This document shows positions 1 to 55,660 of a stretch of DNA of 64,000 nucleotides, piece by piece. The stretch is from an uncultured Legionella sp. GTDB lineage: Bacteria > Pseudomonadota > Gammaproteobacteria > Legionellales > Legionellaceae. Made by a program: the position numbers and the translations under genes. Numbering within the stretch: position 1 is the stretch's first letter; every line of letters begins with the position of its first letter. The notes beneath the pieces are model-generated. The model was not told where the DNA came from. It searched no databases and saw nothing but the letters and a program-made list of their open reading frames with translations. The stretch is taken from assembly GCA_964576655.1 (NCBI GenBank), contig CAZNVR010000001.1, positions 26,637 to 90,636 on the forward strand, in the 5' to 3' direction.

Positions 1-295
1 AATCTTTAACACTTATGCCATGATATGCAGCTTGTGAAAGCGTATTTTCTTCGGCGTGACAACATATACACTCATGTAAATCAATGCTCGATGCAATATT
101 ATGATTATTGCAGCGTGGACATCCACCTTCATCGCAATTCTGAATGCCTCGTGGTGTACCATTATATCCAGTGGAAATAATACGTCCATCTTTTACTAAG
201 ATCGCGCCGACTTGACGACGACAACAGCTTGAGCGCATAGCGACAACACTTGCAATGCGTAAAAAATATTCATCTAAAGTCATTTTATTCATCAT
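1..295 (-). CDS. dCMP deaminase (deoxycytidylate deaminase family), N-terminal part only; 3' end lies beyond the window start
   Basis: Hand translation of the minus strand from ATG 295 (alternatives 292/283) gives MMNKMTLDEYFLRIASVVAMRSSCCRRQVGAILVKDGRIISTGYNGTPRG..GGCPRC..HECICCHAEENT. It has the CxHAEEN zinc/catalytic-Glu motif. It is missing from the ORF track because it is truncated. Confidence 0.8.
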   Translation of the reverse strand, partial: MMNKMTLDEYFLRIASVVAMRSSCCRRQVGAILVKDGRIISTGYNGTPRGIQNCDEGGCPRCNNHNIASSIDLHECICCHAEENTLSQAAYHGISVKD

Positions 296-692
296 TTGTA
301 TCAAAATCTAAATATTGCGTAAAATCATGCTTTGATTTCATTTTTCGGTGTAGTTTCATTAGAGATCGTTTAATATATAAATCGGCAGATGTGATAGTAG
401 AATTTGTAAGTGTTGCAATTTCATCTAATGTATGGACCTTATTATGTAGATGCTGATATGTGAAAAAGCAATAGTTGCTATCACCATGGACTATATACCA
501 TTCGCACTGCTCGTGAGGTGGACCTTGTTGATAGATCGTATTCAAGGCATATGGACACGGTTCACCAGAAAGACATTTGAGCTGACGAGGACAACGTGAA
601 TCCATTGGAATTGTTGAATAAAGTCGTTCTTTCTCTTTAGGATTCATTAAGTTAATGTCTTCAAATCCAGTTGTAATTTTCTTTTTACGCAT
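285..692 (-). CDS. Cys/His-rich small protein with C-terminal sigma-70 region-4-like helix-turn-helix
   Basis: 135 aa. N-terminal CPRQLKC..PCPY..HEQCEW..YCFF cluster. The C-terminal HTLDEIATLTNSTITSADLYIKRSLMKLHRKM resembles a sigma region 4.2 HTH. Confidence 0.4.
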   Translation of the reverse strand: MRKKKITTGFEDINLMNPKEKERLYSTIPMDSRCPRQLKCLSGEPCPYALNTIYQQGPPHEQCEWYIVHGDSNYCFFTYQHLHNKVHTLDEIATLTNSTITSADLYIKRSLMKLHRKMKSKHDFTQYLDFDTNDE

Positions 693-3529: not shown

Positions 3530-4273
3530 TTATCTTATACCATCTAATCTCCAAAAACGTTCTAACATTGTCATTTGTAATTTTTCAATAGCATCGCGAT
3601 CTGGTGCCCATTGTAAGAGGGATTTTTGATATAATGTATCAATACGTTCCTCTAATTGAATGGCTTGTGCTAAAACAGTTTCTAATGAATAGACTCCTGA
3701 TCGAATATCTTTTAATTCTTCAACATGTAGTGATGGGTAAATAATTTCTTCATGTTCAAAAATATCAATCGCTTCATATAAGAGTCGTATAAGATGCATA
3801 GCAAACTTCGTGTCATAACCATACTGTTCAATTAGCGCATAACGTTTACTATTAGCTTGAGGATTCTTAATAAGAATCTTATGACGTTGAGTATGAGCAT
3901 ATCCTTTAAAAGCATGATATGCTTTCTTAGATAAAAATAAATGACGATTCTCTATAAGTTCTTCGCCAAACATTGTATTATAAACAATCTTGTTTTCAGG
4001 CGTATAGAGAATACTAAGGATGTTTGGATTATTAGCGATCGCTAATTGAATAAATTTGATTAAACCATAGCACGTATAATCAACATTTTTACCATCAATT
4101 TTATCATTAAGAACAAGATGTTCACATTTCGATAATCCATATACATATTCTTTTGGAAAGATACAAATGCCTTGGAAGTCATCATCTGATTCAATAGTAT
4201 CAGTACCATAAAGTTTGGAGCCGGTTCGAACCTTAAGAATTAAATTCTCTTGTGCGAGTCGTTGTTCTTGCAT
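3530..4273 (-). CDS. Pol-beta superfamily nucleotidyltransferase (RlaP / PF10127-like, RNA-ligase-associated)
   Basis: 247 aa. The N-terminal VRTGSKLYGTDTIESDDDFQGICI is the GS..SDxD nucleotidyltransferase signature. It sits in the same operon as Rnl1. Confidence 0.6.
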   Translation of the reverse strand: MQEQRLAQENLILKVRTGSKLYGTDTIESDDDFQGICIFPKEYVYGLSKCEHLVLNDKIDGKNVDYTCYGLIKFIQLAIANNPNILSILYTPENKIVYNTMFGEELIENRHLFLSKKAYHAFKGYAHTQRHKILIKNPQANSKRYALIEQYGYDTKFAMHLIRLLYEAIDIFEHEEIIYPSLHVEELKDIRSGVYSLETVLAQAIQLEERIDTLYQKSLLQWAPDRDAIEKLQMTMLERFWRLDGIR

Positions 4274-5701: not shown

Positions 5702-6202
5702 TCATAAGGGTACGAAAGAAAGTGATTTTAAATTAATTGAATTCTCTAATTCTTTATCATATTGAAAATCATTTGCTAATTGATTTAATTGTTGGATATA
5801 GAATTGATCGTCATGGTAAAAGCGATGAATAACGTGATGATTATGAATTTCAGTAAACCACCGAAAACCTTGGACCATATCTTTCACCTTTAAAAGCATC
5901 TTCTTAACTTTTCGATTTCCCAAGGCGACAACCATGCGTGGACGAATTAATTCAAGTTCCATTGCAAGAGCTTCATGCCACTCATCTTCAGAATGCATCC
6001 AGCGTTTTTCCGCAGTAGTGATGTAGATATGGTGTAGATTAATACTCGATCGTTCTAAATAAGAACGGAATAACTTAATAGATTCACTTTCAATATCATA
6101 TTGATCAGACCATTCATCAATAAAGACTAAATTTGCATCTGTAGAACCGAAGCCTAAGGCTTGAACAGATTTGAGCTTTGATGAAATTAGCTTAGTATCC
6201 AC
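5702..6202 (-). CDS. uracil-DNA glycosylase superfamily-like protein, degenerate motifs
   Basis: 166 aa. GFGSTDANLVFIDEWSD sits where family-4 UDG has GEGP..A.IMFVGEAPG. IYITTAEKR matches (TN..KC), and LIRPRMVVALGN is also UDG-like. The catalytic motifs are not conserved. Confidence 0.4.
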   Translation of the reverse strand: MDTKLISSKLKSVQALGFGSTDANLVFIDEWSDQYDIESESIKLFRSYLERSSINLHHIYITTAEKRWMHSEDEWHEALAMELELIRPRMVVALGNRKVKKMLLKVKDMVQGFRWFTEIHNHHVIHRFYHDDQFYIQQLNQLANDFQYDKELENSINLKSLSFVPL

Positions 6203-10140: not shown

Positions 10141-11094
10141 TTATCTTTCTAAATATGCATTACTAACAATCTTAAGTTGGAGTCTACCGACTTCGTATTC
10201 ATATCGCTCAATAGTAGGTCTAATCACAATTCCTTCTCGTATCTGATTCTCATATAATTCTGTCTTTCCTTCGGCTAAATCTTTGATTTTGAGCTCACTA
10301 TATGGCCCACGGTATATGAGTGGACAGAACTGCATACCTTGACCCATCGACTGCATTTCATCATAACTGAGCCATCTGCCATGATCGTAGACGTCAAAGA
10401 CTCTAATATCAGGTTCGGAACGCCCATATCTAAGGTCTTGCACAGGTCCGAACACTTCTCCATAGACTGCAAGTCCTTCGTGCGCCTGAAGCCAAGTCGA
10501 TAACCATGGACAATTCTTTAAAGCATTCCACCACATATTATTATCGGCTTCTTTAACCCATCGAGTGCGTGATCCACAATGCATCTGTCCGTTAACAAAA
10601 ACGAATCGACCATTTGCTCCATGGACCTTCTCTGTTGCGACGATCTCTTCATTCTCTTGGAATAAATGTCCATATCTATGCCATGATTCAACGTCATAAA
10701 TTGGATAAACGCCTTCTGGTGCATTGGCTTCTTCAGCGAATGAACTAATGCCTCGAATAGGTGGATCATATCGTGTGATACCAATTATCGGTGCCGCATC
10801 ATCTCCTTCTTTTAATCCTTCAGGTGATGGTATCAATAATCCTTGAGAATATACACCCCTAAAACGACGAACTTTAATTCGTTTGCTATCTTTCAGGAAG
10901 TCGAATTGTGGAGTATCTGGTACAACGCTGTCTGGCTGTATATAAACCGCAAGATCTCCTTCGTGCCAATCAGCTAGGCGAACACAGATTGTAAAATTCC
11001 ATATCTTAACAATACCTAAGGTATCGGCATTTGGATGTTTTTCGATTGCTCCAAGTTGAACAACGTCAGCTCTATGGGTTGATTTTGTTTCCAT
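10141..11094 (-). CDS. RNA ligase, Rnl2/DraRnl(Rnl5)-like: N-terminal OB-like domain plus adenylyltransferase domain
   Basis: 317 aa. Motif I is EKVHGANGRF (T4 Rnl2 has EKIHGTNFS). VYGEVFGPVQD matches VFGEFAGPGIQ. The N-terminal 110 aa resemble the OB module of DRB0094-type ligases. Confidence 0.7.
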   Translation of the reverse strand: METKSTHRADVVQLGAIEKHPNADTLGIVKIWNFTICVRLADWHEGDLAVYIQPDSVVPDTPQFDFLKDSKRIKVRRFRGVYSQGLLIPSPEGLKEGDDAAPIIGITRYDPPIRGISSFAEEANAPEGVYPIYDVESWHRYGHLFQENEEIVATEKVHGANGRFVFVNGQMHCGSRTRWVKEADNNMWWNALKNCPWLSTWLQAHEGLAVYGEVFGPVQDLRYGRSEPDIRVFDVYDHGRWLSYDEMQSMGQGMQFCPLIYRGPYSELKIKDLAEGKTELYENQIREGIVIRPTIERYEYEVGRLQLKIVSNAYLER

Positions 11095-22360: not shown

Positions 22361-23098
22361 TTACCACGTCGCCTTCGTCAAATGCCAGATACAGTTACGT
22401 GAGAATTGTGGAAATAATGGTGCAAATAACACAGCTAATGTATTTGTATCATAATATTGTTGGAGATGCGCAAAATGATCTTGCTGCGCTGTCGACATAT
22501 GAGGCAAAATATCTTTTTGACTTGCAAACGTTCCATAATGTGCTTCAATATTAAAACGTTTTGAAAGCTCTTCCTTAAGCTCATCATATCGCCATTCATA
22601 TACATGATTTTCAGCTGCTGAACCATTAAAACAGGGGGTTGATAGAAAGACTTTTGTATGTGGTTTAGTCCATTGTGCAATTGTATCAAGAAGTTTTAAC
22701 CCAGAATCACGGTCAACATGTTCAATAACTTCGAAACATGTAATAATATCATAATCATGATCCGGAACAATTTCAGGTTGCTTAATTAAATCAACTTGAT
22801 AAAATTCCGTGGGAAAATTAGTTTTAATATTCTCTTTATTATGGCTCACCGCACTTTCACGATACTCTAATCCTACATAAAGCGAAGGTTTTGCTTTATT
22901 AGAATACAATGCCATACACATTGGTGCATCTTTACCACATCCAACATCAAGAATCTTTTTTTCACGACCCCAAAATTTCGCAACATGTGTCCATCGTAAA
23001 TGATGAGCTAAAATATCACGATGCATAACTTGACGCTTACTATATTGGTCAGCAGTTAACTGCGTCGTATTATAGCCATTTTTATTAATGTTCACCAT
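22361..23098 (-). CDS. class I SAM-dependent methyltransferase
   Basis: 245 aa. Motif I is KILDVGCGKDAP, and DIITCFEVIEHV is the post-II/III region. The substrate is not inferable. Confidence 0.7.
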   Translation of the reverse strand: MVNINKNGYNTTQLTADQYSKRQVMHRDILAHHLRWTHVAKFWGREKKILDVGCGKDAPMCMALYSNKAKPSLYVGLEYRESAVSHNKENIKTNFPTEFYQVDLIKQPEIVPDHDYDIITCFEVIEHVDRDSGLKLLDTIAQWTKPHTKVFLSTPCFNGSAAENHVYEWRYDELKEELSKRFNIEAHYGTFASQKDILPHMSTAQQDHFAHLQQYYDTNTLAVLFAPLFPQFSRNCIWHLTKATW

Positions 23099-25309: not shown

Positions 25310-25676
25310 TTTTGAAAATCACCTCATTTAAATCTTGTAGCCATTGAGATGATTGAATTGATCCATCATCATTGAACTGTCGCACAACCCCTACATTTGC
25401 TAATGATACTATATTAAGTGCGGCATGTGGTGATCCATTGAGTCGAGGAATTTCACCTATCATAGCTTTCTTAGGAAAATTTAACTTTGTTACGTTTTCT
25501 TTTAATACAACAACTTCACTCTGAGGAAAACCTTGAATTTGATCAATTTTCAAAATTAAATAATTTCCACCTACATTCTTAACTTTGCATTTTAATAAAA
25601 CATCATAATCTGTAGCATAAAAAGAAGATATAATCTTATCATTTGATAATTGCATATTAAAATCCAATAACTTCAT
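25296..25676 (-). CDS. hypothetical protein
   Basis: 126 aa. Confidence 0.6.
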   Translation of the reverse strand: MKLLDFNMQLSNDKIISSFYATDYDVLLKCKVKNVGGNYLILKIDQIQGFPQSEVVVLKENVTKLNFPKKAMIGEIPRLNGSPHAALNIVSLANVGVVRQFNDDGSIQSSQWLQDLNEVIFKNEDK

Positions 25677-26172
25677 GTAAAGTTACTCGATGATCAAAAC
25701 CCTCTTCATCATCAGGTACTTCTAATTGAGCATAAAATGTATGATGCAATCTATTGACCATTTCTGTTGCATCTTGTATACTAATGCCTTTTTGCATAGC
25801 ACATTGAACCGCACGTTGAGCAGCAAGTGGCATTTCAATATCAATATATAAAAGTCCAACAGATGCATTGTATTCACGAGCTAATTTTATCCATGATTGC
25901 CGTATTGTTTTTGTTGGATTAATATCATCAATAATTAATAAATTACCAGAAATTAACGCATAGCGAGCAAAAATCATTTGTTGAGCGTGATTTAAACGTT
26001 TTCCATCAATACGTGTTCCACCTAAAGCTTTATAAATCAAGCGATACGCAAGAGTTTTTCCAGCTCCTTGCGGTCCACATAACACAATAACACAACATTG
26101 ACTAAGTGATTCAACAAACTTCATAGATCCATTATAGCATGAATTAGATGTTGTTTGTATCATCATTATCAT
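25657..26172 (-). CDS. P-loop kinase, polynucleotide-kinase (T4 Pnk kinase domain)-like; start uncertain
   Basis: Walker A is LCGPQGAGKT. LIIDDINPTKTIRQSWIKLAREY..IDIEMPLAAQRA parallels T4 Pnkp [34 protein letters not shown] (recalled). Confidence 0.5.
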   Translation of the reverse strand: MIMMIQTTSNSCYNGSMKFVESLSQCCVIVLCGPQGAGKTLAYRLIYKALGGTRIDGKRLNHAQQMIFARYALISGNLLIIDDINPTKTIRQSWIKLAREYNASVGLLYIDIEMPLAAQRAVQCAMQKGISIQDATEMVNRLHHTFYAQLEVPDDEEGFDHRVTLHEVIGF

Positions 26173-26464: not shown

Positions 26465-26760
26465 TGACGAATCTCGATTTGTGACATTTTTGGATACTTA
26501 TCATCTAGCCGGAACATATAGACAGAACCGTCTGCTAAACACCATACTTTAGCGACGCCATATTGCTTTGGATCATCATCAATTAATTCTCCTAATAGTC
26601 GCTGTAATTGTTCATATTTAACATCAATCAATTTACGACTAATTTTTGATGCATTATCAAATGCAAACAATGGCCATAAGTGATTTAATCCATTGTTGTC
26701 AATAGCACCAATAATCATTGATCCATGATCTTGCTTAATTAATTTTAATCCTATGTCCAT
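26461..26760 (-). CDS. hypothetical protein (leaderless geometry)
   Basis: 99 aa. The ATG lies 6 nt after TGGTATAAT. Confidence 0.6.
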   Translation of the reverse strand: MDIGLKLIKQDHGSMIIGAIDNNGLNHLWPLFAFDNASKISRKLIDVKYEQLQRLLGELIDDDPKQYGVAKVWCLADGSVYMFRLDDKYPKMSQIEIRQ

Positions 26761-28270: not shown

Positions 28271-29218
28271 TTATACTACTTTTTTATGAGTTTTCGTTGA
28301 AAGAAACAATGCAAGGTCTTTAGAATAGCATGCAATTTTATTCATTTGTATTGTGGTGTCTTTTTGTTTCCAAATTGATTTTAAAACAAACATTTCCACA
28401 AATAATTGCCAAAAAGGATCAATTGGTAAAAGCTCATGTGGATAATCATTCATATTAGAATTACGTAATATGCCTTCAATAATAGAAACATTATCTAGAT
28501 TATTCAGATTATCTTCTAAAGAAGTAGAATGTAATATCGGTAACTCTCCTGATGTCGATTGTTCATCAATCAACTCACGGGCTAATTGAAAATGTGCTTC
28601 ATATATATGCATTGAATTAGCAGTTAAATAAAGTTCACCCGGCACAATTCCAACACAACTTGCAATAAAATTTAATAACAAACAAAATGATGGCACATCA
28701 TAATTGTTTCCCCAAATGGCGTCATTGCTTCGCATTAAAACATGTAGATTTAATTGATTGTCGCGAATTAAAAAATGTAATGCCACAGTACACGGAACAT
28801 CTTTGCTAGTAGGTGGATTCCATCTCCAAAATGTCATGATTGCTTGACGTGTATCAGGATCTTTTTTTAAGGTATTAACCACAAAACGTAATTGTTCACG
28901 AAATGGTATGCCATACGCACCGTCATGGATACCGTCTTCTGAAAAAGACGAGATGTTTTTGTTATAATAATGCAGCATGGCTGTATCATTACGACCTAAT
29001 AAATACCATAGATTTTCAGCAAATAAAAAGAAAAAATTAAGATTACGTTTTTCTGATAAATATAAGCACTTCAATGGATCAATAGGACCCATCGTGTATG
29101 GACCACGAGCCTCTAGAGTTAATTGACCTCTTGGCGAAACTTTACGACCATTTGTTAAAATACAATCAACGGCTTTTTTAAACTCTATATGATATTCGTG
29201 ACCTTGTTGCAAAATCAA
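28271..29218 (-). CDS. ThyA-family pyrimidine C5-transferase, dCMP hydroxymethylase-like (T4 gp42-like)
   Basis: 315 aa. DPDTRQAIMTFW, catalytic-Cys motif VPCTVALHFLIRD and MRSNDAIWGNNYD are present. Asp occupies the position of E. coli ThyA Asn177, as with Asp179 of T4 gp42. Confidence 0.7.
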   Translation of the reverse strand: MILQQGHEYHIEFKKAVDCILTNGRKVSPRGQLTLEARGPYTMGPIDPLKCLYLSEKRNLNFFFLFAENLWYLLGRNDTAMLHYYNKNISSFSEDGIHDGAYGIPFREQLRFVVNTLKKDPDTRQAIMTFWRWNPPTSKDVPCTVALHFLIRDNQLNLHVLMRSNDAIWGNNYDVPSFCLLLNFIASCVGIVPGELYLTANSMHIYEAHFQLARELIDEQSTSGELPILHSTSLEDNLNNLDNVSIIEGILRNSNMNDYPHELLPIDPFWQLFVEMFVLKSIWKQKDTTIQMNKIACYSKDLALFLSTKTHKKVV

Positions 29219-30167
29219 CTCCTTTCGTAAACATCTCGGCGTATTCTTTTAATTTTTCATAATGAAAACGTTTCCAATATGAAGGATGTGGTATCATAAT
29301 CTTATTTGAATCATCATCAATTTCATATTTCGTTGCAAAATCCGCAGCTTTTTGTCCTAGAAAAACAATCGTCTTCGGCTTAATCCATTGAATTTCAAGC
29401 TTCAGTATTTCGGCTGCAACATCATCATTAGGAAGCCAAGGTTTAAAAGCATTTGTTAAATAGATGTCCTTCTTATACAAATTTGATTCTTTTAGCGTCG
29501 AATATAAATACTCTGATGAAGTACCAGAAGAAAATGGATATTCATTCAATGTGGCTTTAGGACGTAATTGTTCGCCAACAATCATAATTTCAGCGTTACG
29601 ACTTCCAGTACTTCGTGCATCAATAGTATTCAATTTAGAATTAATAAATGAAGTATTCGTACGTCTTTCGATAAGTGGTTGGACATGCGCGACAAATGTT
29701 TGAGCTGAACATTTAGCAGAATCATAAAAAATTGGATTTAATGAAGATTTTTTCAAAATTATTTCATTAAATAATTCAATCGCTTTATTGATGTCATTAT
29801 TATAATTAAATTCCGCTAATGATTCATTAGTTGCAACACAGCGATTATAAATAGTTTTGGCATCGGTTGACGAATAAATTAATAATGCATCATTCTTTTT
29901 TGCCAACATATCAAAAACCCAAAATTGAAAATCTGAAATTGTACATCCATCACGATAAAGATTTGAATAAACATATTCACCTAAATAAAATCGATCAAAC
30001 ACAACATCTTGACCTTCATATTCTTGGAATAATTGTAAGTATTCTTGATAAGGATTGTTAGTCTGTGGCTTAGAACAATGAATTAACTTAAAATTAAAAT
30101 CACGCGCTATTATTTCCGCTAAAGTTGATTTTCCAGATCGATCTAATCCTTCAATTATGATAAACAT
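29178..30167 (-). CDS. fusion protein: thymidylate/dNMP kinase-like P-loop domain + uracil-DNA-glycosylase-superfamily domain
   Basis: 329 aa. The N-terminus has IIIEGLDRSGKSTLAE..DRFYLGEYVY (Tmk-like). The C-terminus has EIMIVGEQ, IYLTNAFKPW, PKTIVFLGQKAA and IPHPSYW (UDG family-4-like motifs A/B). Confidence 0.6.
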   Translation of the reverse strand: MFIIIEGLDRSGKSTLAEIIARDFNFKLIHCSKPQTNNPYQEYLQLFQEYEGQDVVFDRFYLGEYVYSNLYRDGCTISDFQFWVFDMLAKKNDALLIYSSTDAKTIYNRCVATNESLAEFNYNNDINKAIELFNEIILKKSSLNPIFYDSAKCSAQTFVAHVQPLIERRTNTSFINSKLNTIDARSTGSRNAEIMIVGEQLRPKATLNEYPFSSGTSSEYLYSTLKESNLYKKDIYLTNAFKPWLPNDDVAAEILKLEIQWIKPKTIVFLGQKAADFATKYEIDDDSNKIMIPHPSYWKRFHYEKLKEYAEMFTKGVDFATRSRISYRV

Positions 30168-30172
30168 TATAT

Positions 30173-30526
30173 TTAGCTCCTTATTTTATACATAATCGTC
30201 GATGCTGTTAATCGACGTTGAAATTCATCTTCTGTAATTTTTTCTTGTTCAAATGAATACCGATAATTGTTACGATCCCAACCATCTGGATCCATTATAA
30301 AAGTATCAGGATATAATTCTTGAAGCCAAGTAGCGCTGGTTTTCAAAATCGGCATTGAAGTATTAAAATATTGGCATATAAAGTCAATAATTATGCGTAA
30401 TATACAATCTTGATGATGTGTTATATAGCCTTGTTTACCATTACATAATCCACAGAATGTCGATGGCTGCTTTAAGGCATTAATAAATCCAATTAAAGAT
30501 TCTATTTGCAGCATAAATATCTCCAT
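30173..30526 (-). CDS. hypothetical protein
   Basis: 117 aa. Start is 30526 or 30514. Confidence 0.6.
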   Translation of the reverse strand: MEIFMLQIESLIGFINALKQPSTFCGLCNGKQGYITHHQDCILRIIIDFICQYFNTSMPILKTSATWLQELYPDTFIMDPDGWDRNNYRYSFEQEKITEDEFQRRLTASTIMYKIRS

Positions 30527-31673: not shown

Positions 31674-31907
31674 TCATTGTATATTCGGTTTTTGATTATT
31701 TAATCGTTTAGACCATTCAAGTTCATATAAAATTAAAGATTTAATATTTTGGTAATATTGATCTTTTAAAGGTTCCCATCTTTCGAGTGCCTTTGGATCT
31801 TGTAAAATACTAAATCCAACACACAATGTCCGAATTTCATCAAAAATTTTAAAAATCTTTTCCTTAACATCAGAAATAGATGATATATCAATGTCATCAT
31901 TTATCAT
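31674..31907 (-). CDS. hypothetical protein
   Basis: 77 aa. Confidence 0.55.
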   Translation of the reverse strand: MINDDIDISSISDVKEKIFKIFDEIRTLCVGFSILQDPKALERWEPLKDQYYQNIKSLILYELEWSKRLNNQKPNIQ

Positions 31908-32356
31908 TTTGTAGCCACCTTTGAATATCCACGATTAATACGTTTAATATTTTCGCTATTTTTTGCCATATAAAAATCAAATAACTCTTGTGCTGATAGA
32001 TTAAAAATTAAACAAAGATTAACAAAAAAATGTAGAATATCAACTAATTCCATCTTAATTTCTTTTACTTCATCTTGTGATGGATTAAAATCTTCTGGAA
32101 CTTTATAATTTCTCCATGGCTTCCAAGGTGTTCTATTTAAAAGTTCATGCAATTCATCGGTCAATGCTAACACCATATCTTTGACTACTATAGGTTTTTC
32201 TATTTGATTATCAAGATTTTGTAAATCATTTCCATATAGAAGTTGAAGTTTTTTTTGATATGCAAATATTGTTTCTAATTTATTCTCAATGTTATCTAAC
32301 GGAATAACATCAACATTAGCACATTGGTTTTCAGGATTAATTATTCTAGTTGACAT
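31904..32356 (-). CDS. all-alpha NTP pyrophosphohydrolase (dimeric dUTPase / MazG-like)
   Basis: 150 aa. LALTDELHELLNRTPWKPWR and EIKMELVDILHFFVNL match the E..E..WK.W / E.VD.LHF pattern of dUTPase_2/MazG enzymes. Confidence 0.6.
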   Translation of the reverse strand: MSTRIINPENQCANVDVIPLDNIENKLETIFAYQKKLQLLYGNDLQNLDNQIEKPIVVKDMVLALTDELHELLNRTPWKPWRNYKVPEDFNPSQDEVKEIKMELVDILHFFVNLCLIFNLSAQELFDFYMAKNSENIKRINRGYSKVATK

Positions 32357-33417: not shown

Positions 33418-35019
33418 TTAAAGTTTCCAAAAACCATCAATAGAATGGATTAATTGACGTGATCCGTTAGCATAAACAAGACAAGATGAATGAAGCCAAC
33501 TAGAAGGACCACTATTATAACTTAGTTTTAAAAAGCTTGATGTACCAACTCCCCAGGCACCTCGTAGTATTTCGGGCGTATGTGTATGACCTGTAACAGA
33601 ATTTCCATAAGCACTTTCCATACCCATAATAGATCCACGTGACCCATTTGGTCCTTTATCGCCATGTGCGCCTAATTGGATTCTAGCGACCTTATAGTCT
33701 TGATCACGTTGAAGCCAGACAATTCTATCTTTATTTTTTAATCCTGCAAGTTCGACTCCATATCGTAGAGGATCACGTCCTTCCAACATAGCTTGTGCTA
33801 ATTTAAGACTAATATAATGATTGAAGGGATCCTTTACATATATGCCTTCATCTAAATAGCGTTTTAAAAATTCATCATGATTTGACTTAACAATAACAAT
33901 TTTTGACACAATTTTGGACCATTTGTCTAAATCATTTGCTAAAATTTTAAGTTCTTGTTCTAAATTTAATTCACCACGATGCGCACGGATTGCTCGTAAA
34001 ACTAAATTATGCTGCTCATGATGATTAATTGACATACCATTAAAAGCATCATGAAGTATGAGACTTTTTGGCTTTAATTTACAAACAATTTCAGCCCATG
34101 CTTTCGCAGCCTGTGGATCAGTTTCACCTGAATGCCAATCGCCTAAAACAAATGCTTCAGGAATACATGTCGTGATTTGTCCATTTTTTTGATATTTAAT
34201 TCCAAGATCAATAAAGGAACCATTTTTATCAGCTTGAATTTGTCGAAAATGATAAATTTCATTATCTACAACTTCAACGATTATAGCACCCATAATATGG
34301 TCATTATCAGCAATATATGCTGTTCGTTCGCTCATGTAGCGTTGGGTATTATAATGAGGACTCGTAATGGCACCCGTTGTCATAAGGGCGTGAGGAGATT
34401 TACTGTTTGCAACAGGAACCATTTTTAAACGTTGTTTCGGTGAAGCATAAATAAAGCTTCCATTTCGTTGACCAATTCTGCCAAGCGATGTAGTAGGATC
34501 AATATGTTTTGCACTTAATTTTATTGTGCTTAAATAAATGTTGCTATTTAATGCCATCTCCTCAACAACAATATGCTCATCTCTAAGGCGACGATCTACT
34601 CGACATCCTGCTGATGACGCGGGATCAGAAGCTAATAAAATTAAAAGTTCAGCATTCTGCCTTTTGCAATAATTTTTTAATGCATTATAAAAATTTTCAT
34701 CAACTGAACATCCTACAACAGCTGTTGTAATAATAAAACGTTGTTGATTACCAATTACACTTCTCAGATCTTTAAGTTTTTTGGGGGTTAAAATATCTTC
34801 AACATTGACATCAGAAAAAACATTAGGAAATTTTAATCGCGCTTGTTTTTCTAACTCTGATAATGATCCGTAATAATGCTCGATTTGACGCTTTGTATAT
34901 AAAAATGCTTTTAAATCCTGAATTGTAACGTGTCGTTTTAGTGTCTTCTGTAATTTAATATAGTCATGTAGTAATTGATCTTTCTTGTTTTTCACTAGTG
35001 GAGTTTGTATTTTTTTCAT
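33418..35019 (-). CDS. large metallophosphoesterase-domain protein
   Basis: 533 aa. The C-terminal half has GDWHSG, VKSNHDEF, GAHGDKG and GHTHTP in order. The N-terminal 290 aa are unassigned. Confidence 0.6.
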   Translation of the reverse strand: MKKIQTPLVKNKKDQLLHDYIKLQKTLKRHVTIQDLKAFLYTKRQIEHYYGSLSELEKQARLKFPNVFSDVNVEDILTPKKLKDLRSVIGNQQRFIITTAVVGCSVDENFYNALKNYCKRQNAELLILLASDPASSAGCRVDRRLRDEHIVVEEMALNSNIYLSTIKLSAKHIDPTTSLGRIGQRNGSFIYASPKQRLKMVPVANSKSPHALMTTGAITSPHYNTQRYMSERTAYIADNDHIMGAIIVEVVDNEIYHFRQIQADKNGSFIDLGIKYQKNGQITTCIPEAFVLGDWHSGETDPQAAKAWAEIVCKLKPKSLILHDAFNGMSINHHEQHNLVLRAIRAHRGELNLEQELKILANDLDKWSKIVSKIVIVKSNHDEFLKRYLDEGIYVKDPFNHYISLKLAQAMLEGRDPLRYGVELAGLKNKDRIVWLQRDQDYKVARIQLGAHGDKGPNGSRGSIMGMESAYGNSVTGHTHTPEILRGAWGVGTSSFLKLSYNSGPSSWLHSSCLVYANGSRQLIHSIDGFWKL

Positions 35020-50173: not shown

Positions 50174-53100
50174 TTATAGCGATACAATCTTGTCAACGAC
50201 GAGGCTTAATGAATTATTCCAAATATTAATCGTACCCCAAACCTGTACAATAGACGACGAACTGATGAGCGACTGATGTTGTTGCAACTTTTCAGGCCAT
50301 ACGACAAGCCTAACTTTTTGACCGCCATTGTTGAGGTTTACAAAAGCCATCTTATCGCCTTTTTTCGTTGTAACACTGTGAAAGTCAGTAAGTTTTCCAA
50401 CTGATGATAATTTACATCCTGATCCATACTTAGGGAGTTCTGCAACTTTTATTGGTGATCCAACGATGGTTTTTTGAAAAATGTCGATATAATTCATGTC
50501 CTGAACAGGTAGTGCAGCGCAGCGAAATTCTATTAATTCTGGAAGTGAGAGGTTCTTATACTTATCTGGTAATGTCTTAGCTTTTGCTAAAGTATAGAGT
50601 TTATTGATTAATTGCATTGGATCATCTAATTCTACTTCTTTAAAGCAATCGGCAAAAATAAGAGCTTCAATAACGTCTTTACGCACAATTCGTTTATTAA
50701 TTCGATCATAAAAATCCTTAAATGATGCAAAAGGCTGTTTACTAGCTACCTCAGACACGGAGCGCTCTCCCATGCCATTAATAAAACTTAATGACATAAT
50801 GATTTTTTTATCTTGAATATAAAAATCTTCTTTACTGCTATTAATGCCTGGTAACTGTAAAATATCTTTAATTAATGGATATAGTTCTTTACGATCATCT
50901 TTTGATCCATTAGAAAATACTGCACAATACCATTCCAAGGTGTAATGCTGTCGCAAGTATTGACAAATGTATCCCAACATAGCATACGCTAATGCATGTG
51001 ACTTATTGAATCCATATCCTGCAAAAGACTCAATCAACGACCATAGTTCATTTGCTTTTTCGATACTAATATCGTCATAATGAGACGATGCATGGGCTGT
51101 GAACCTATCTTTAAAAGATGACAATAACACTTTGTCCTTATCGCCCATGGATCGTCGGACCTCATCTGCTTCCGCAGGAGAAAATCCACCTAAAATTTGT
51201 ACGGCTGCCATAACCTGCTCTTGATAAACAATGATTCCATACGTATCGCGTAAAATATCTTTTAGCGAAGGATGTGGATAAGATATTAATTCTTCAGAAT
51301 TTTTTCTCTTCACAAAATGCCGATCCATTCCAACATTCATAGGTCCTGGTCGCCCTAAGGAAGTGATCGCTGCTAAATCATCAAGCCCTGTTATATTATT
51401 TAAATCGGTTAAAATTTTTCGTGCAACAGTTGTATGATATTGAAATATCGTATCTGTATCAGCTTTAGAAAAGGCATCAAGTGTTTTTTTATCATCTAAT
51501 GGTATTGTATATGGATCTATTTCAATATTATGAAGCGTTTTAATAATTTGAATGCACTTTGCAATATCGCCTAATGTATTTAAGCCTAAAAAATCATATT
51601 TAATAGCTCCTACTTTTTTCACCCAATCTGCACTATATTGCGTCGCCCATTCATCATTATCGCTAAAAAGTGGCATTACATCAGAAAGTGGCTTAGATGA
51701 AACAACTACGCCACATGGATGTCGACCACGTTGACGAGATTGACCTAAAAGAAGTATTGTCGATTCATATACGTCGCGATTTTTTACCATAAAATCATAT
51801 AGAACCGCACTCTTATCATCAGCCAAAACCTCGGAAAAAAATTCTAATTCATTCGATCCTTGTGGACTTCCAGGAATTAAACTTGTCAATGCATTTTTTT
51901 CTGGAAATGACATATCAGGTCGAAGTGCACCTAAAACATCTTTGAGAGCTTGTTTAGTTTTTAGTGTTTGAAATGTACCTAAAATAGCAACTTTATCCTT
52001 ACCATATTTTTCCATAACATACTTCTTAACGGGATCTGAATTACTAAAATCTAGATCAACATCTGGAAACGTGCCATTGATAATACGCGCTTTATTAATA
52101 AAGCGGTCAAATGAAAGGCTATAAGTGATGGGATTTAAATGAGTTATCTTAAGTCCATAACTTAATAATGATCCTGATGCTGAACCACGACCAGGACCGA
52201 CAGAGATGTTATTCGTTCCACACCAGCGAATCACATCTTCAAGTAATAAAAAATATGATATAAAATTAACTTTGCCATTATGAAATAGCGTGTCCATTTC
52301 ATATTTTAATCTTTCAACATGAGCATGGTTTTGAAAATCAATACGTCCATTGTCAATTAAAATTTTTAATAGAAGACCCTGATCATCGTCGCCTTCTTGA
52401 TACAGTGGATGCTGACTAAGATCGATCGCAGGTAGTAGCGGTTCAAATTTAGGCATATCGAATTGTGATTTTTGCATAATCTCAATAGTGTTTGCCATCA
52501 TATCAGGTAAATCGTCTAATAAATATGCATGATGAGCCTCAATTTTATCATGTAATTGTGTAGGGGTAAAAAGATGATGGCTTTGATCAAAATCCCAACC
52601 TTTGCCGCTTCTTGAATGCAATTTAATATCCTGTAACACTTTCATGCTCTCATCAATAATATGCGCATCGGGTGTAATGATTTTCTTAATATTATATCGT
52701 TGCGAATAATCAAGCAAAAACATATTAACTAATTGTTGCTTATTAACTTTTGTTGGATCATCCTTATCTATAACAATAGATGGCTGAAGCTCAAGATAAT
52801 AGTCGTCCTTAAATTGCTTAAGAAATTCTTTGACATACTCTTCAGCGAGAGGTTCATTGCCTTTAAGCAGCTCATCGCAAATTGGACCCGCTAAGCATCC
52901 AGAACCAATAATTAACCCCTCTTTATGGGCAAATAATTCATCGATAGTTACACGAGGTTTATAATAAAAATGATCTGGCTTAAATGAAAGCGTTGATAAA
53001 CGACATAAATTCTTATATCCTTCAAAATTCTTAACCAATACCGTCAAATGATAGTATCCTTTTTTAGGTTTTAATCCATCATATAATTGATCCGTAAGAT

Positions 53101-53299
53101 AAATCTCACATCCCATTGTGATGGGAAATTGATGTTTTTTGCCTAATGTATATAATTCAAGCAATGAACTTGAATCGCCGTGATCTGTTAATGCTAATCC
53201 AGCAAGACCTTTACGTTTTGCAGCTAAAACCCATTGTTCAACGGTTCCTACACCATCTAAAGAAAAATGCGAATGCGAATGTAAGCTAGCATAGGTCAT
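50174..53299 (-). CDS. dnaE: DNA polymerase III alpha subunit (DnaE-type, PHP domain)
   Basis: About 1040 aa. The PHP start is MTYASLHSHSHFSLDG, with GRHPCGVVVS and a fingers/OB-like C-terminus. ATG 53299 forms an ATGA overlap with the primase stop. Confidence 0.9.
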   Translation of the reverse strand: MTYASLHSHSHFSLDGVGTVEQWVLAAKRKGLAGLALTDHGDSSSLLELYTLGKKHQFPITMGCEIYLTDQLYDGLKPKKGYYHLTVLVKNFEGYKNLCRLSTLSFKPDHFYYKPRVTIDELFAHKEGLIIGSGCLAGPICDELLKGNEPLAEEYVKEFLKQFKDDYYLELQPSIVIDKDDPTKVNKQQLVNMFLLDYSQRYNIKKIITPDAHIIDESMKVLQDIKLHSRSGKGWDFDQSHHLFTPTQLHDKIEAHHAYLLDDLPDMMANTIEIMQKSQFDMPKFEPLLPAIDLSQHPLYQEGDDDQGLLLKILIDNGRIDFQNHAHVERLKYEMDTLFHNGKVNFISYFLLLEDVIRWCGTNNISVGPGRGSASGSLLSYGLKITHLNPITYSLSFDRFINKARIINGTFPDVDLDFSNSDPVKKYVMEKYGKDKVAILGTFQTLKTKQALKDVLGALRPDMSFPEKNALTSLIPGSPQGSNELEFFSEVLADDKSAVLYDFMVKNRDVYESTILLLGQSRQRGRHPCGVVVSSKPLSDVMPLFSDNDEWATQYSADWVKKVGAIKYDFLGLNTLGDIAKCIQIIKTLHNIEIDPYTIPLDDKKTLDAFSKADTDTIFQYHTTVARKILTDLNNITGLDDLAAITSLGRPGPMNVGMDRHFVKRKNSEELISYPHPSLKDILRDTYGIIVYQEQVMAAVQILGGFSPAEADEVRRSMGDKDKVLLSSFKDRFTAHASSHYDDISIEKANELWSLIESFAGYGFNKSHALAYAMLGYICQYLRQHYTLEWYCAVFSNGSKDDRKELYPLIKDILQLPGINSSKEDFYIQDKKIIMSLSFINGMGERSVSEVASKQPFASFKDFYDRINKRIVRKDVIEALIFADCFKEVELDDPMQLINKLYTLAKAKTLPDKYKNLSLPELIEFRCAALPVQDMNYIDIFQKTIVGSPIKVAELPKYGSGCKLSSVGKLTDFHSVTTKKGDKMAFVNLNNGGQKVRLVVWPEKLQQHQSLISSSSIVQVWGTINIWNNSLSLVVDKIVSL

Positions 53300-54327
53300 A
53301 AATAAGAACATGATAATGAGCTAGTAAGTGCTCGATGGGTGACATTGTATTGAATAGATGATGTAATATAATTATTAGCTTCATCTATAGAACAGTCGCC
53401 TAAGTCTTTATCTAGCGGCAAGTCGACAATCTTTACGTCGTATAAAAGAGATAATTGTGCAGCTAATGCTAAGCATTCTTTGCGTGCATCAGGATCAAGA
53501 CCTAAGATAACAGTTTGTAAATTTTCATTTGACATTAATAATGATAATTGAATATCGCTTATTTGTTTTCCAAATAATGCTACAGCATTGTGTTGATAAG
53601 CTTTATGACAATCAATCGGTCCTTCCACAAGAGTTATAGTCGACTCATCTTTAACTGTACAAAAATTATACAGAAATAATGATTTTTTAAGACCATCAGG
53701 TTTTGTTAATATTTTTATTTGAGATTCACCTGTTATATCACGACCTTGCCATCCAATAAAACGACCTAAATGATCTTTGATTGGAAATATCACTCGTTTC
53801 GCATAATCGTGATAATAAAGATCAAATAAATCTACAAGCTCTTGGGTGTATCCACGAACATTCTTAAGATAATTTGAAACATCTGATCCATCTTTAAGAT
53901 CAATTCTTGTAAAATAAAAAGGTATAGAAATAGTATCGTTTTGAAATGCTAATTCATCTAATGTAGATATTTTGTTGCTTAAAGCTAAGGGTGCTAAGGT
54001 AGTATTTTGAGTAAAGATAGTTTGATTTTTGATTATTTCGAATGCTTGATATTTTGAGATATTATCTAATAAGCTAATAAAATGTGCTAAGTTACCATGA
54101 TAATCACATACAAAACAGCGGAAATATTTATCTTGTCTATTAATAATAAATTTTCTCGAACGTCTACAATCAGGGTTAATGCAATACTCAAGCATTAAAT
54201 AACGTGATTTATCAATAAAGTTAATATTATGTGATGTTAAATATTCATCAATGGGAAACAGATGAATTAAGTTGGTTAGATCCTGTATAGTCATTTTCGT
54301 CGTTGCTTGTAATCTCTTGATTTTCAC
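53296..54327 (-). CDS. dnaG: DnaG-like DNA primase (zinc finger + TOPRIM); start uncertain
   Basis: 343 aa. The zinc finger is CINPDCRR..FRCFVCDYHGN, and the TOPRIM region has LVEGPIDC and GLDPD. Confidence 0.75.
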   Translation of the reverse strand: MKIKRLQATTKMTIQDLTNLIHLFPIDEYLTSHNINFIDKSRYLMLEYCINPDCRRSRKFIINRQDKYFRCFVCDYHGNLAHFISLLDNISKYQAFEIIKNQTIFTQNTTLAPLALSNKISTLDELAFQNDTISIPFYFTRIDLKDGSDVSNYLKNVRGYTQELVDLFDLYYHDYAKRVIFPIKDHLGRFIGWQGRDITGESQIKILTKPDGLKKSLFLYNFCTVKDESTITLVEGPIDCHKAYQHNAVALFGKQISDIQLSLLMSNENLQTVILGLDPDARKECLALAAQLSLLYDVKIVDLPLDKDLGDCSIDEANNYITSSIQYNVTHRALTSSLSCSYL

Positions 54328-55660
54328 CTACTGTCAAAGGATATATACCGATTCTTCGATCGTATAAAACAATACGTTTTAAATCTGTAACACAATCTAC
54401 AGCAACATTCGTAGCACCATCTCGTTGTTTCGCCAATAGAATTTTCATTCTATTATTTTGTTCATCTTCTTTTGATTTTGTTAAGGTAATGACGCATTCA
54501 GAACATCGAATAATATCAAAACATTCTGATACATCAGTAATGCTAAATAGTTTACGCCCCTTAGCAGTATCAATTTGGGCAGCTCTATTTCCTTGCGCTG
54601 CAGATACAACGGCAACTTCCAACTCTTCTGCTAACGCAACAAGACCACGATAGATTAAAGCTTGATTATGACGTAATTCTTTTGCAGCATTTTTGGTACA
54701 CAATAATTGTCCATAATCACATACAATCATATCAAAATCAAAGTCAGCTTTCTTCTGTTTACAATATGCTATAAAATCTTCAATTGTCACATCAAATCCA
54801 TGCCAAGGTTTTAAAACTAAGTTTTTACCAAACAATGCTTTAGCAGCAATTAAGCGTTGTTGTTCAGTAGAATCTAGAGCACTTTGTCCATTATAAAACT
54901 TCATATATGGAATACCAGTAAAACGACTTAAAAAACGTAAACTTGTTTGTTCATCTTGACCTTCATGATATATGTATAGCACTTTCTTATCATTGATCAT
55001 CGCATTATATGTCAAATTAATTAACATTAATGATTTTCCAACATTAGTTCCACCTAAGATCGTTGTAAGAGTTTGACGTGGCAATCCACCGAGCATAGCA
55101 GAATCAAATTCTGGAATTCCTATTGGTATACGTCGATCTTGACTATTTGATACTGCATCAATAAGCGTCTCAATTGAACTAAAATCGATAACTTTATCTG
55201 CTATAAAATCTATTTGTTTAATCTCATTAATTGCATTAAGTGTTATATCATAAGCATTTTCTCTTTGATTTTCATTAAATAAAGATGCAACTTTTGTATG
55301 AAGTTTAATAAACATCCGACTTCTTAACCATCCTGTCAATTCTTTACGTAAATATTCTTCATCACGATAATGACTTGCTTCAATTTTTTCTAATACTCGT
55401 TCATATACAAATCGCTTATCTTGAGAAAATTTTAAAAGCTCATTCTTAAGAGTTATTATTTCAATGGGGCGACCAAATTGTTCATAATGCTGCAATATCG
55501 TATCGAAAAACCAACCTAAAATAGAATCTTCGAAATAATCTTTTTTTAAATATAATGAACATTTAGCAAGAAGATGTTCGCTTATAGTCATCATTTTAAG
55601 TATATGATACTGTATTTCTTGATCAAATGGAAGATATTTTTGCTTTTCTTCTGGCGTCAT
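54248..55660 (-). CDS. dnaB: DnaB-family replicative helicase
   Basis: 470 aa. Walker A is GGTNVGKSLMLIN, Walker B is MIVCDYGQLL, and the arginine-finger region is AAQGNR. Confidence 0.85.
   Translation of the reverse strand: MTPEEKQKYLPFDQEIQYHILKMMTISEHLLAKCSLYLKKDYFEDSILGWFFDTILQHYEQFGRPIEIITLKNELLKFSQDKRFVYERVLEKIEASHYRDEEYLRKELTGWLRSRMFIKLHTKVASLFNENQRENAYDITLNAINEIKQIDFIADKVIDFSSIETLIDAVSNSQDRRIPIGIPEFDSAMLGGLPRQTLTTILGGTNVGKSLMLINLTYNAMINDKKVLYIYHEGQDEQTSLRFLSRFTGIPYMKFYNGQSALDSTEQQRLIAAKALFGKNLVLKPWHGFDVTIEDFIAYCKQKKADFDFDMIVCDYGQLLCTKNAAKELRHNQALIYRGLVALAEELEVAVVSAAQGNRAAQIDTAKGRKLFSITDVSECFDIIRCSECVITLTKSKEDEQNNRMKILLAKQRDGATNVAVDCVTDLKRIVLYDRRIGIYPLTVGENQEITSNDENDYTGSNQLNSSVSH

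Follow-up and report, generated by a model that had tools for sequence, protein, structure and literature searches.

A YorR-like kinase fused to a family-4-like uracil-DNA glycosylase domain in a conserved phage gene module predicted to replace cytosine

The kinase-UDG fusion gene

The 64,000-nt stretch of DNA analyzed here, hereafter the window, covers positions 26,637–90,636 of contig CAZNVR010000001.1 (GenBank assembly GCA_964576655.1, uncultured Legionella sp.) and belongs to a phage. It carries a 329-aa gene in which an N-terminal nucleotide kinase domain is joined to a C-terminal domain of the uracil-DNA glycosylase (UDG) superfamily, and the 3' end of this gene overlaps the start of a ThyA-family gene predicted to encode a (d)CMP hydroxymethylase (Table 1). 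The open reading frame (ORF) of the fusion is intact and has an AAGGAG motif 9 nt upstream of its ATG start. The protein matched Pfam UDG (PF03167) across residues 187–308 (E = 1.4e-14, 54.8 bits against a cut-off of 24.3) and Pfam Thymidylate_kin (PF02223) across residues 5–42 only (E = 1.4e-8, 35.1 bits against a cut-off of 27), while PHROG 761 “thymidylate kinase” matched residues 1–137. An AlphaFold2 (AF2) model computed from a 100-sequence alignment had a mean pLDDT of 94.2 and a pTM of 0.92. The sequence of the linker between the two domains varies across our 153-sequence alignment of the fusion family, to which the conservation values below refer.

Only four fairly close relatives were present in an index of 5.8 billion proteins, three at 48–56% identity and one at 27%, all with both domains. 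A five-sequence profile of these and the window protein, run exhaustively against 1.84 billion representatives of 50% identity clusters, retrieved at least 302 representatives at E ≤ 1e-30 that we counted as the same fused architecture, and nearly all of the best 150 matches were 290–330 aa long and aligned end to end with the profile. IMG/VR held at least 370 confirmed relatives. The identical window protein occurs on three contigs, of which the one analyzed here is from a groundwater metagenome. A frameshift or sequencing error is excluded by the recurrence of the fused architecture across these 302 or more cluster representatives, and the hundreds of clusters together with the identical protein on three contigs rule out an assembly artefact. 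The fusion proposed from the sequence alone in a first-pass annotation of the window is confirmed as a real, widespread phage gene.

A tblastn search of 50,697 phage records found full-length homologs in Stenotrophomonas phage AXL3 (gp29), Pseudoxanthomonas phage PW916, Bacillus phage G (gp315), and one uncultured phage, annotated, where at all, as “thymidylate kinase” or hypothetical. Scanning one genome per bacterial and archaeal species gave P-loop matches only, among the matches listed, which suggests that the fusion is absent from cellular genomes. Foldseek against solved structures returned none with both a kinase and a UDG domain, and just three proteins in a library of predicted viral structures, all uncharacterized, matched across both. 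The first-pass annotation knew of no characterized kinase-UDG fusion, and we likewise found none described in the literature searched; searches on YorR function and phage G DNA modification returned nothing relevant beyond the papers cited here. The fusion, which that annotation called unusual, is unstudied, but with hundreds of clusters it is not rare in nature.

The kinase domain

The N-terminal half is YorR-like, with full-domain similarity in both profile and structure. Positions 2–160 aligned with residues 3–159 of SPβ YorR (2axp/3kb2) in a PDB profile search (E = 1.9e-27), and Foldseek superposed the kinase half on 2axp with a TM score of 0.86 (normalized to the target) and a root-mean-square deviation of 2.3 Å; YorR shares the fold and family of the first 150 residues of the fusion. 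The earlier label of thymidylate kinase (Tmk)-like holds insofar as this is a P-loop kinase. The fusion does carry the canonical Tmk motifs, a P-loop GxxxxGK[ST] and DR[YHF]. Canonical Tmk identity was rejected, however, since PDB matches to canonical Tmk were far weaker than to YorR (E = 1e-5 to 4e-3), the Pfam match was partial, and the NCBIfam dTMP-kinase model TIGR00041 reached 33.9 bits against a cut-off of 83.25 over residues 1–27 only.

The motifs of this domain are the P-loop GLDRSGKS (residues 7–14), FDRFYLGE (with D58-R59-F60), Y67, and R72. G12, K13, D58, and R59 were invariant (153/153), and E6, G7, D9, G12, K13, L16, A17, P34, Y43, D58, R59, G63, E64, Y67, and R72 were all at least 90% conserved. 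The motifs quoted in the first-pass annotation for both halves are all present and are the ones conserved in the family. In this alignment both halves of the protein are under purifying selection.

YorR-like “nucleotide kinases” (DLP3_078, RB69p045, RL38J1_214) have been listed, without experiments, in phage cytosine-modification clusters near a ThyA homolog that modifies dCMP (PMC13326640). These are separate genes with no reported UDG domain and their partner carries a 5-hydroxy-dCMP signature, whereas the kinase described here carries a UDG domain and is partnered by a gene with a hydroxymethylase signature.

This kinase family also has a second architecture, in which the kinase is followed by an acidic/Ser-rich linker of low complexity and then by a small helical C-terminal domain that is conserved (..LERANAIR..KKKG..); loci L005-L013, L017, L020, L022-L031, and L036 carry this form. 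We first suspected a degenerate UDG in these 260–300 aa kinases and rejected it as an unrelated architecture: the region beyond the kinase is the low-complexity linker and small helical domain, with no Pfam match and no ThyA nearby.

The UDG domain

The C-terminal half has the UDG fold that had been proposed for it. The family-4 UDGs 1vk2 and 1ui0 came first in the PDB profile search (E ~1e-12), followed by UdgX and then by a PolA-fused UDG (9qhs), and Foldseek matched family-4 UDG and UdgX at TM 0.5–0.6. Recognizable features are G198-E199 (a motif A remnant), F212, S217-S218, N239, and H294-P295-S-Y-W-K-R-F (motif B). By alignment, G198-E199 corresponds to the Gly-Glu of motif A (GEGPG) and H294-P295-x-Y297..R300 to motif B (HPAYLLR), while F212 (stacking Phe), N239 (recognition Asn), and H294 correspond to F54, N80, and H155 of Thermus thermophilus UDG. 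The aromatic residue and the Arg at +3 and +6 after the motif B His (Y/F297 and R300) align with DNA-contacting positions of family-4 enzymes.

Conservation is concentrated in the pocket, with N239 in 153/153 sequences, H294 and P295 in 151/153, an acidic residue (Glu/Asp) at 199 in 149/153, and F212 in 147/153. Positions conserved in at least 90% of the sequences were G188, G198, F212, L221, N239, L270, G271, H294, P295, R300, and F301, and S217-S218 and Y/F297 were also strongly conserved. Since the pocket is near-invariant, we take this as evidence against a mere scaffold role, and the almost invariant catalytic-pocket residues likewise leave the UDG-decoy function floated earlier without support. 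In UNG, the recognition Asn (N204) sets uracil-type rather than cytosine-type hydrogen bonding.

The domain fits no curated UDG family; the superfamily-level Pfam model is the sole UDG model that it passes. Like the family-4 UDGs of Thermotoga maritima (1vk2/1l9g) and T. thermophilus (1ui0), whose fold it has, it keeps the Gly-Glu of motif A, a stacking Phe, a recognition Asn, and the HPxY..R of motif B, but it differs in lacking their 4Fe-4S cluster and motif A Pro-Gly, in being shorter by about 50 residues, and in its fusion to a kinase. We rejected assignment to canonical family 4 because motif A is incomplete, the Fe-S cysteines are missing, and the scores fall below the curated cut-offs. 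UdgX was rejected as well: the score against TIGR03914 was 31.9 (cut-off 189.95), and the alignment has no conserved His of the UdgX cross-linking type between F212 and N239. The structural alignment to UdgX spans ~165 of ~207 residues at TM ~0.53, the fusion domain being the shorter.

Other UDG-like sequences were encountered. The window ORF at 5702–6202 (minus strand, 166 aa) has weak UDG similarity (Pfam 20 bits against a cut-off of 24.3; hidden Markov model (HMM) of the C-terminal half, 2.5e-6). Because motif A, the recognition Asn, and motif B are all absent, we rejected it as a functional duplicate in favor of a degenerate UDG-like sequence or a chance match. A 1244-aa ORF at L054:9788-13522 has an N-terminal UDG-like domain and is probably a PolA-UDG fusion, and Ralstonia jumbo phage RsoM2USA (MG752970, 265833-266198) encodes a stand-alone homolog of the UDG half with 36% identity to residues 186–303 of the L077 protein.

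The overlapping ThyA homolog

No early ATG is present in the ThyA-family ORF, which leaves TTG 29218 and TTG 29212, each a short way past an AAAGGAG motif, as its possible starts. The first of these gives the 41-nt overlap with the fusion gene that was originally described. The overlap is real but more likely 35 nt, judging from the second TTG, which lies 6 nt after AAAGGAG and is the start chosen, giving a 313-aa product, by independent annotations of this sequence in other assemblies and of the closest relative; relative L143 carries a homologous AGGAG-N6-TTG at the start of its ThyA homolog.

The closest PDB match of the window ThyA homolog was the CMP hydroxymethylase MilA (E = 9e-24), to which it is identical at the diagnostic positions. 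The equivalents of L143/C146/D169/N177 in Escherichia coli ThyA are D/C/D/D in the window gene, as they are in 75 of the 76 loci where a ThyA homolog is present. Experiments on phage ThyA homologs reported in 2026 assigned N177D to the use of dCMP as substrate, L143D/E to hydroxymethylation, and D169N to the synthesis of 5-hydroxy-dCMP, so that an enzyme with D169 retained is not a 5-hydroxy-dCMP synthase (PMC13326640). The window gene thus has the residues of a T4/MilA-type (d)CMP hydroxymethylase (Cys146, Asp at N177, Asp/Glu at L143, and Asp169). The ThyA homologs of the module scored far below the curated thymidylate-synthase cut-offs.

Genomic context of the module

We assembled 134 IMG/VR loci and searched them with HMMs for each half of the fusion, ThyA, dCMP deaminase, PolA, and MazG-like proteins, built from Pfam-verified seeds; unless another denominator is given, counts refer to the 78 non-redundant fusion loci with sufficient downstream sequence. 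A ThyA homolog lay directly downstream on the same strand in 74/78 loci with a median gap of -13.5 nt, and in 60 of these 74 it overlapped the fusion gene, which fits the co-expression suggested in the first-pass annotation. A dCMP deaminase was found within 1.7 kb downstream of the fusion in 59 loci. MazG-like NTP pyrophosphatases were directly upstream in 30 loci and elsewhere in the locus in 32 more. Family-A polymerases were present in 60/78 and directly followed the deaminase in several inspected loci. These PolA enzymes are ~600–650 aa and lack a UDG domain, and Pfam searches of two of them found exonuclease and polymerase domains only. Deaminase and MazG-like ORFs formed one BLAST-linked cluster of 126 members from 73 loci, which suggests deaminase-MazG fusion proteins in some phages.

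Stand-alone versions of the kinase (~175 aa) were followed at once by a ThyA homolog in 14 of 16 loci, 13 with D/C/D/D. Because the stand-alone kinases also precede a ThyA homolog, kinase and hydroxymethylase make up the conserved core of the module, and UDG is an added C-terminal domain. An adjacent deaminase accompanied the UDG-fused kinase in 53/67 loci compared with 3/10 for the stand-alone kinase (Fisher p ~0.003, with no phylogenetic correction).

Pfam-scanned recurrent neighbor clusters comprised ThyA, deaminase/MazG, PolA, helicases, nucleases, and methyltransferases. One Methyltransf_23 cluster occurred in 33/82 fusion loci (for example L100:6693-7508, L144:8921-9697, and AXL3 gp31 at L001:5596-6420) and accompanies the module in the window clade as well. 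Its nearest solved or curated relatives, by weak matches, are the O-methyltransferases UbiG and Hen1. The protein might act further on the hydroxymethyl group or on the nucleotide. One locus (L034:8268-12857) had a variant order of a fused MazG-like/NT5C nucleotidase, ThyX, kinase-UDG, and PolA with no ThyA homolog; this fusion may serve a thymine-side pathway.

Cultured carriers

Of 37 restriction enzymes tried on AXL3 virion DNA, only TasI and Tru1I cut it; both recognize sites made up of A/T alone, and each of the 35 without effect has G/C in its site (PMC7504290). The authors of that study named gp29 a thymidylate kinase and did not mention the UDG half (PMC7504290). Besides the module, AXL3 and PW916 encode ThyX, and their ThyA homolog is therefore free for a role other than thymidylate synthesis.

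A predicted pathway for cytosine replacement

The fusion is probably part of a cytosine-replacing pathway, because it lies almost always directly upstream of a predicted enzyme for a hydroxymethyl-cytosine nucleotide. We propose, as an even call, that it acts as a bifunctional enzyme in a conserved phage module through which 5-hydroxymethylcytosine, or a derivative of it, takes the place of cytosine, and that its UDG domain most likely excises uracil. The components belong to known superfamilies and the pathway logic is that of the T-even phages. In the predicted pathway, the MazG-like pyrophosphatase would convert dCTP to dCMP, the translationally coupled ThyA homolog would convert dCMP to 5-hydroxymethyl-dCMP (5-hm-dCMP), and the YorR-like kinase domain would phosphorylate this to 5-hm-dCDP, after which the host nucleoside-diphosphate kinase and the phage polymerase would carry the modified nucleotide into DNA. 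The adjacent dCMP deaminase would turn some of the dCMP into dUMP, from which dTMP is made. As the pathway raises dUMP/dUTP, the UDG domain, which is trimmed relative to family 4 but retains its whole uracil-type pocket, would bind DNA and remove uracil that enters phage DNA, and its DNA binding would also place the kinase at replicating DNA.

The individual assignments differ in strength. Phosphorylation of 5-hm-dCMP is the phage-specific step in the T4 paradigm and is not done by host kinases. Cytosine-modification pathways require a dedicated deoxynucleoside monophosphate (dNMP) kinase (PMC13326640), and with this need, the near-obligate coupling to the hydroxymethylase, and the invariant catalytic residues we regard 5-hm-dCMP as the probable substrate of the kinase domain. 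That the UDG domain is active on uracil, supplied in trans on the kinase, we put a little short of an even chance from its conserved residues. We prefer this activity because UDGs fused to PolA excise dU, while the PolA of the module is without UDG yet lies in the same locus in 60/78 cases. The higher co-occurrence of the deaminase with the UDG-fused kinase fits the uracil-excision model. Among the three ideas in the first-pass annotation, a kinase tethered to a putative pyrimidine-policing glycosylase is the best fit.

Several observations weigh against this proposal. Motif A (GE[AG]PG) is incomplete, reading GEQLR in the window and G-[ED]-x-x-N in the family consensus, with the Pro-Gly not kept. 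The four Fe-S cysteines of family 4 are missing: residues 175–329 contain no Cys and the 153 sequences have no conserved Cys column, and the UDG half therefore carries no 4Fe-4S cluster. The domain is ~50 residues shorter than solved family-4 UDGs, and the NCBIfam UDG models scored far below their cut-offs (TIGR00758, 29.5 versus 125.3; NF040953, 33.6 versus 250). Because of these deviations, another substrate or DNA binding alone is possible for the domain. The nearest solved relative of the ThyA homolog, MilA, uses CMP and not dCMP. The deaminase association comes from few loci that are not phylogenetically independent. A C5-cytosine DNA methylase (PF00145) is present in 20/82 fusion loci (for example L075:5421-6587), which would be odd under full cytosine replacement and suggests partial replacement or another role for the methylase. 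Finally, the module is dispersed in the window phage itself, and its polymerase is DnaE-type instead of PolA.

Alternative explanations

The deviations in the UDG domain bear most directly on the idea that the kinase keeps its role while the domain is a catalytically dead pseudo-glycosylase that binds DNA or docks to a protein, anchoring the kinase at DNA or at the replisome, with modified dNTP then produced at its site of use. The loss of the motif A Pro-Gly, the lack of an Fe-S cluster, the shortened domain, and the scores below curated UDG cut-offs would all suit such a tether. N4-like PolA enzymes provide a precedent, bearing UDG domains that have lost their catalytic residues (bioRxiv 10.1101/2025.03.26.645540), and the high pTM suggests a rigid two-domain unit. 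Yet a pure tether would leave N239, H294-P295, F212, and the acidic residue at 199 free to vary, and these are the most conserved residues; we consider a dead domain possible but doubtful.

A glycosylase with shifted specificity is unlikely, even when taken together with the related possibility that the module with its UbiG-like methyltransferase makes an undescribed cytosine derivative. Such an enzyme would police modified versus unmodified pyrimidines by removing cytosine, deaminase-made uracil, or 5-hydroxymethyluracil (5-hmU), and would enforce or exploit base replacement or destroy host DNA; excision of deaminase-derived uracil or of cytosine itself would spare 5-hydroxymethylcytosine-type DNA, in a glycosylase-based equivalent of the cytosine-specific nucleases of T4. 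The constant link to a cytosine-replacement module, with the deaminase adjacent in 53/67 loci, points this way, as does the alteration of motif A (G-E-(Q/R)-x-N for GE[AG]PG) beside the expected position of the base C5, and complexes of TDG with 5-hmU were among the weaker Foldseek matches. But the recognition Asn, which is uracil-type in UNG, is invariant, and the deaminase of the module matches ordinary dCMP deaminases.

Action of the kinase on DNA is disfavored and quite improbable. Here the UDG fold would flip out a 5-hydroxymethylpyrimidine and the kinase, like 5-hmU DNA kinase, would start a hypermodification by phosphorylating the hydroxymethyl group of that base. Thymidine hypermodification does pair a P-loop DNA kinase with a glycosylase-like protein (PMC8989533), and the recurrent S-adenosylmethionine (SAM) methyltransferase hints at further chemistry. 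The stand-alone ~175-aa kinase, however, adjoins the hydroxymethylase in 14/16 loci with no DNA-targeting domain, no aGPT-Pplase-like or pyridoxal-phosphate enzyme was found among the scanned recurrent neighbor clusters, and the pathway would be left without a 5-hm-dCMP kinase. A relationship to 5-hmU DNA kinase was rejected because the tblastn search of phage records gave no match in ViI, M6, SP10, and ΦW-14 type phages. The 5-hmU DNA kinase system with its aGPT-Pplase (PMC5889632, PMC8989533) likewise couples a P-loop kinase to a glycosylase-like protein in phage base modification, but its kinase acts on DNA and we detected no sequence relationship. Its aGPT-Pplases are predicted to have a helix-hairpin-helix and not a UDG fold (PMC8989533), which weakens the premise of the earlier suggestion that UDG-fold proteins had been co-opted for phage hypermodification.

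Ordinary thymidylate metabolism, in which a dTMP kinase beside a thymidylate synthase was fused by chance to a repair UDG, is likewise disfavored and the least probable of all, for although AXL3 gp29/gp28 and phage G gp315/gp319 are annotated accordingly in GenBank and the L034 fusion adjoins ThyX in place of a ThyA homolog, the ThyA homologs carry Asp at the N177 and L143 positions, they and the kinase score far below thymidylate-synthase and dTMP-kinase cut-offs, AXL3 and PW916 also encode ThyX, and AXL3 DNA resists cutting at G/C-containing sites (PMC7504290).

Comparison with known systems and implications

T4 has the same predicted pathway logic and enzyme set in its gp1 dNMP kinase, gp42 dCMP hydroxymethylase, gp56 dCTPase, and Cd deaminase. 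The module differs in having a YorR-like kinase unrelated to gp1, a MazG-like pyrophosphatase, a tight overlapping operon, and a UDG, which T4 is without. A close parallel for the UDG domain is in phages whose PolA is fused to a family-4-type UDG that excises dU ahead of the polymerase (bioRxiv 10.1101/2025.03.26.645540). These phages (SPO1, SP-10, and SP15-like phiLo; 9qhs) also place the domain on a DNA precursor/replication enzyme, have modified pyrimidines, and keep the catalytic motifs; in them the domain is N-terminal on a polymerase and thymine is modified, whereas in the fusion it is C-terminal on a kinase and cytosine is apparently the modified base. The literature searched held no description of the kinase family, of its fusion to an Fe-S-free UDG, or of its breadth in uncultured phages, nor of the tight operon of MazG, kinase-UDG, hydroxymethylase, and deaminase, to which PolA is sometimes added downstream.

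If the proposed pathway is correct, 5-hydroxymethylcytosine-type DNA is made by hundreds of uncultured phages of siphovirus and podovirus size and by no fewer than three cultured phages (AXL3, PW916, and phage G). Their enzyme set would be unlike that of the T-even phages, with the kinase-UDG gene as a compact marker for it. The pathway would explain the restriction resistance of AXL3 and would point to metagenomic phages with DNA that may act unusually when sequenced or cloned. The fusion would also be the second case, after PolA-UDG, of phages with modified pyrimidines that wire a uracil glycosylase into the precursor or replication machinery. The question is directly testable, since cultured phages and a published in vivo assay (co-expression of ThyA homolog and kinase) exist.

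The phage in the window

Table 1 Features of the window discussed in the text, in window positions.
Feature	Position	Strand	Evidence
Kinase-UDG fusion gene, 329 aa	29178..30167	-	ORF; Pfam UDG and Thymidylate_kin; AF2; family of at least 302 full-length representatives
Ribosome-binding site of fusion gene, AAGGAG	30177..30182	-	Sequence reading
N-terminal YorR-like P-loop dNMP-kinase domain, ~residues 1–152	29712..30167	-	Profile match to 2axp/3kb2; Foldseek; invariant residues
Helical inter-domain linker, ~residues 153–184	29616..29711	-	AF2 helices 155–171 and 173–181, block-mean pLDDT 83–98
C-terminal family-4-like UDG domain, ~residues 185–325	29193..29615	-	Pfam PF03167; profile alignment to 1vk2/1ui0; Foldseek; conservation
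ThyA-family gene, predicted (d)CMP hydroxymethylase, TTG start	28271..29212	-	Pfam Thymidylat_synt 1.6e-25; MilA; D143/C146/D169/D177
Ribosome-binding site of ThyA homolog, AAAGGAG, within 3' end of fusion gene	29219..29225	-	Sequence reading
MazG/dUTPase_2-like NTP pyrophosphohydrolase, candidate dCTPase/dUTPase	31904..32356	-	Pfam dUTPase_2 6.9e-13; PHROG NTP-PPase; fusion-adjacent MazG HMM 4e-20
Methyltransf_23 SAM methyltransferase	22361..23098	-	Pfam; BLASTP 1e-35 to cluster representative L100
dCMP-deaminase homolog, 5' part, crossing the window edge	2..304	-	Deaminase HMM 1e-33
DnaE-type Pol III alpha, DnaB, ribonucleotide reductase, GroEL-like chaperonin set	50174-53311, 54248-55660, 55682-57541, 57617-59320	-	
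RNA-repair-type set: T4 Rnl1-like RNA ligase, RlaP nucleotidyltransferase, RNA ligase with OB domain, polynucleotide-kinase-like P-loop protein	1661-2794, 3530-4273, 10141-11094, 25657-26172	-	

The window phage lies on a contig of at least 103 kb with ~32% GC. Its replicative enzymes are a DnaE-type Pol III alpha and DnaB, and it encodes a ribonucleotide reductase with an insertion domain of the B12-dependent type and a GroEL-like chaperonin. Because most fusion carriers are PolA phages and this one is DnaE-type, the module has moved between unrelated backbones. Its closest relatives retain the fusion-ThyA pair, overlapping in one and with one small ORF between the genes in the other, and in relative L144 the methyltransferase adjoins the fusion.

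The RNA-repair-type genes of the window suggest a set that counters host cleavage of tRNA or other RNA. The 533-aa ORF at 33418-35019 (minus strand) matched PHROG 1745 “DNA transfer protein” (E = 1.6e-96) with a weak metallophosphatase signature, and recalls the A1-type pre-early proteins of T5.

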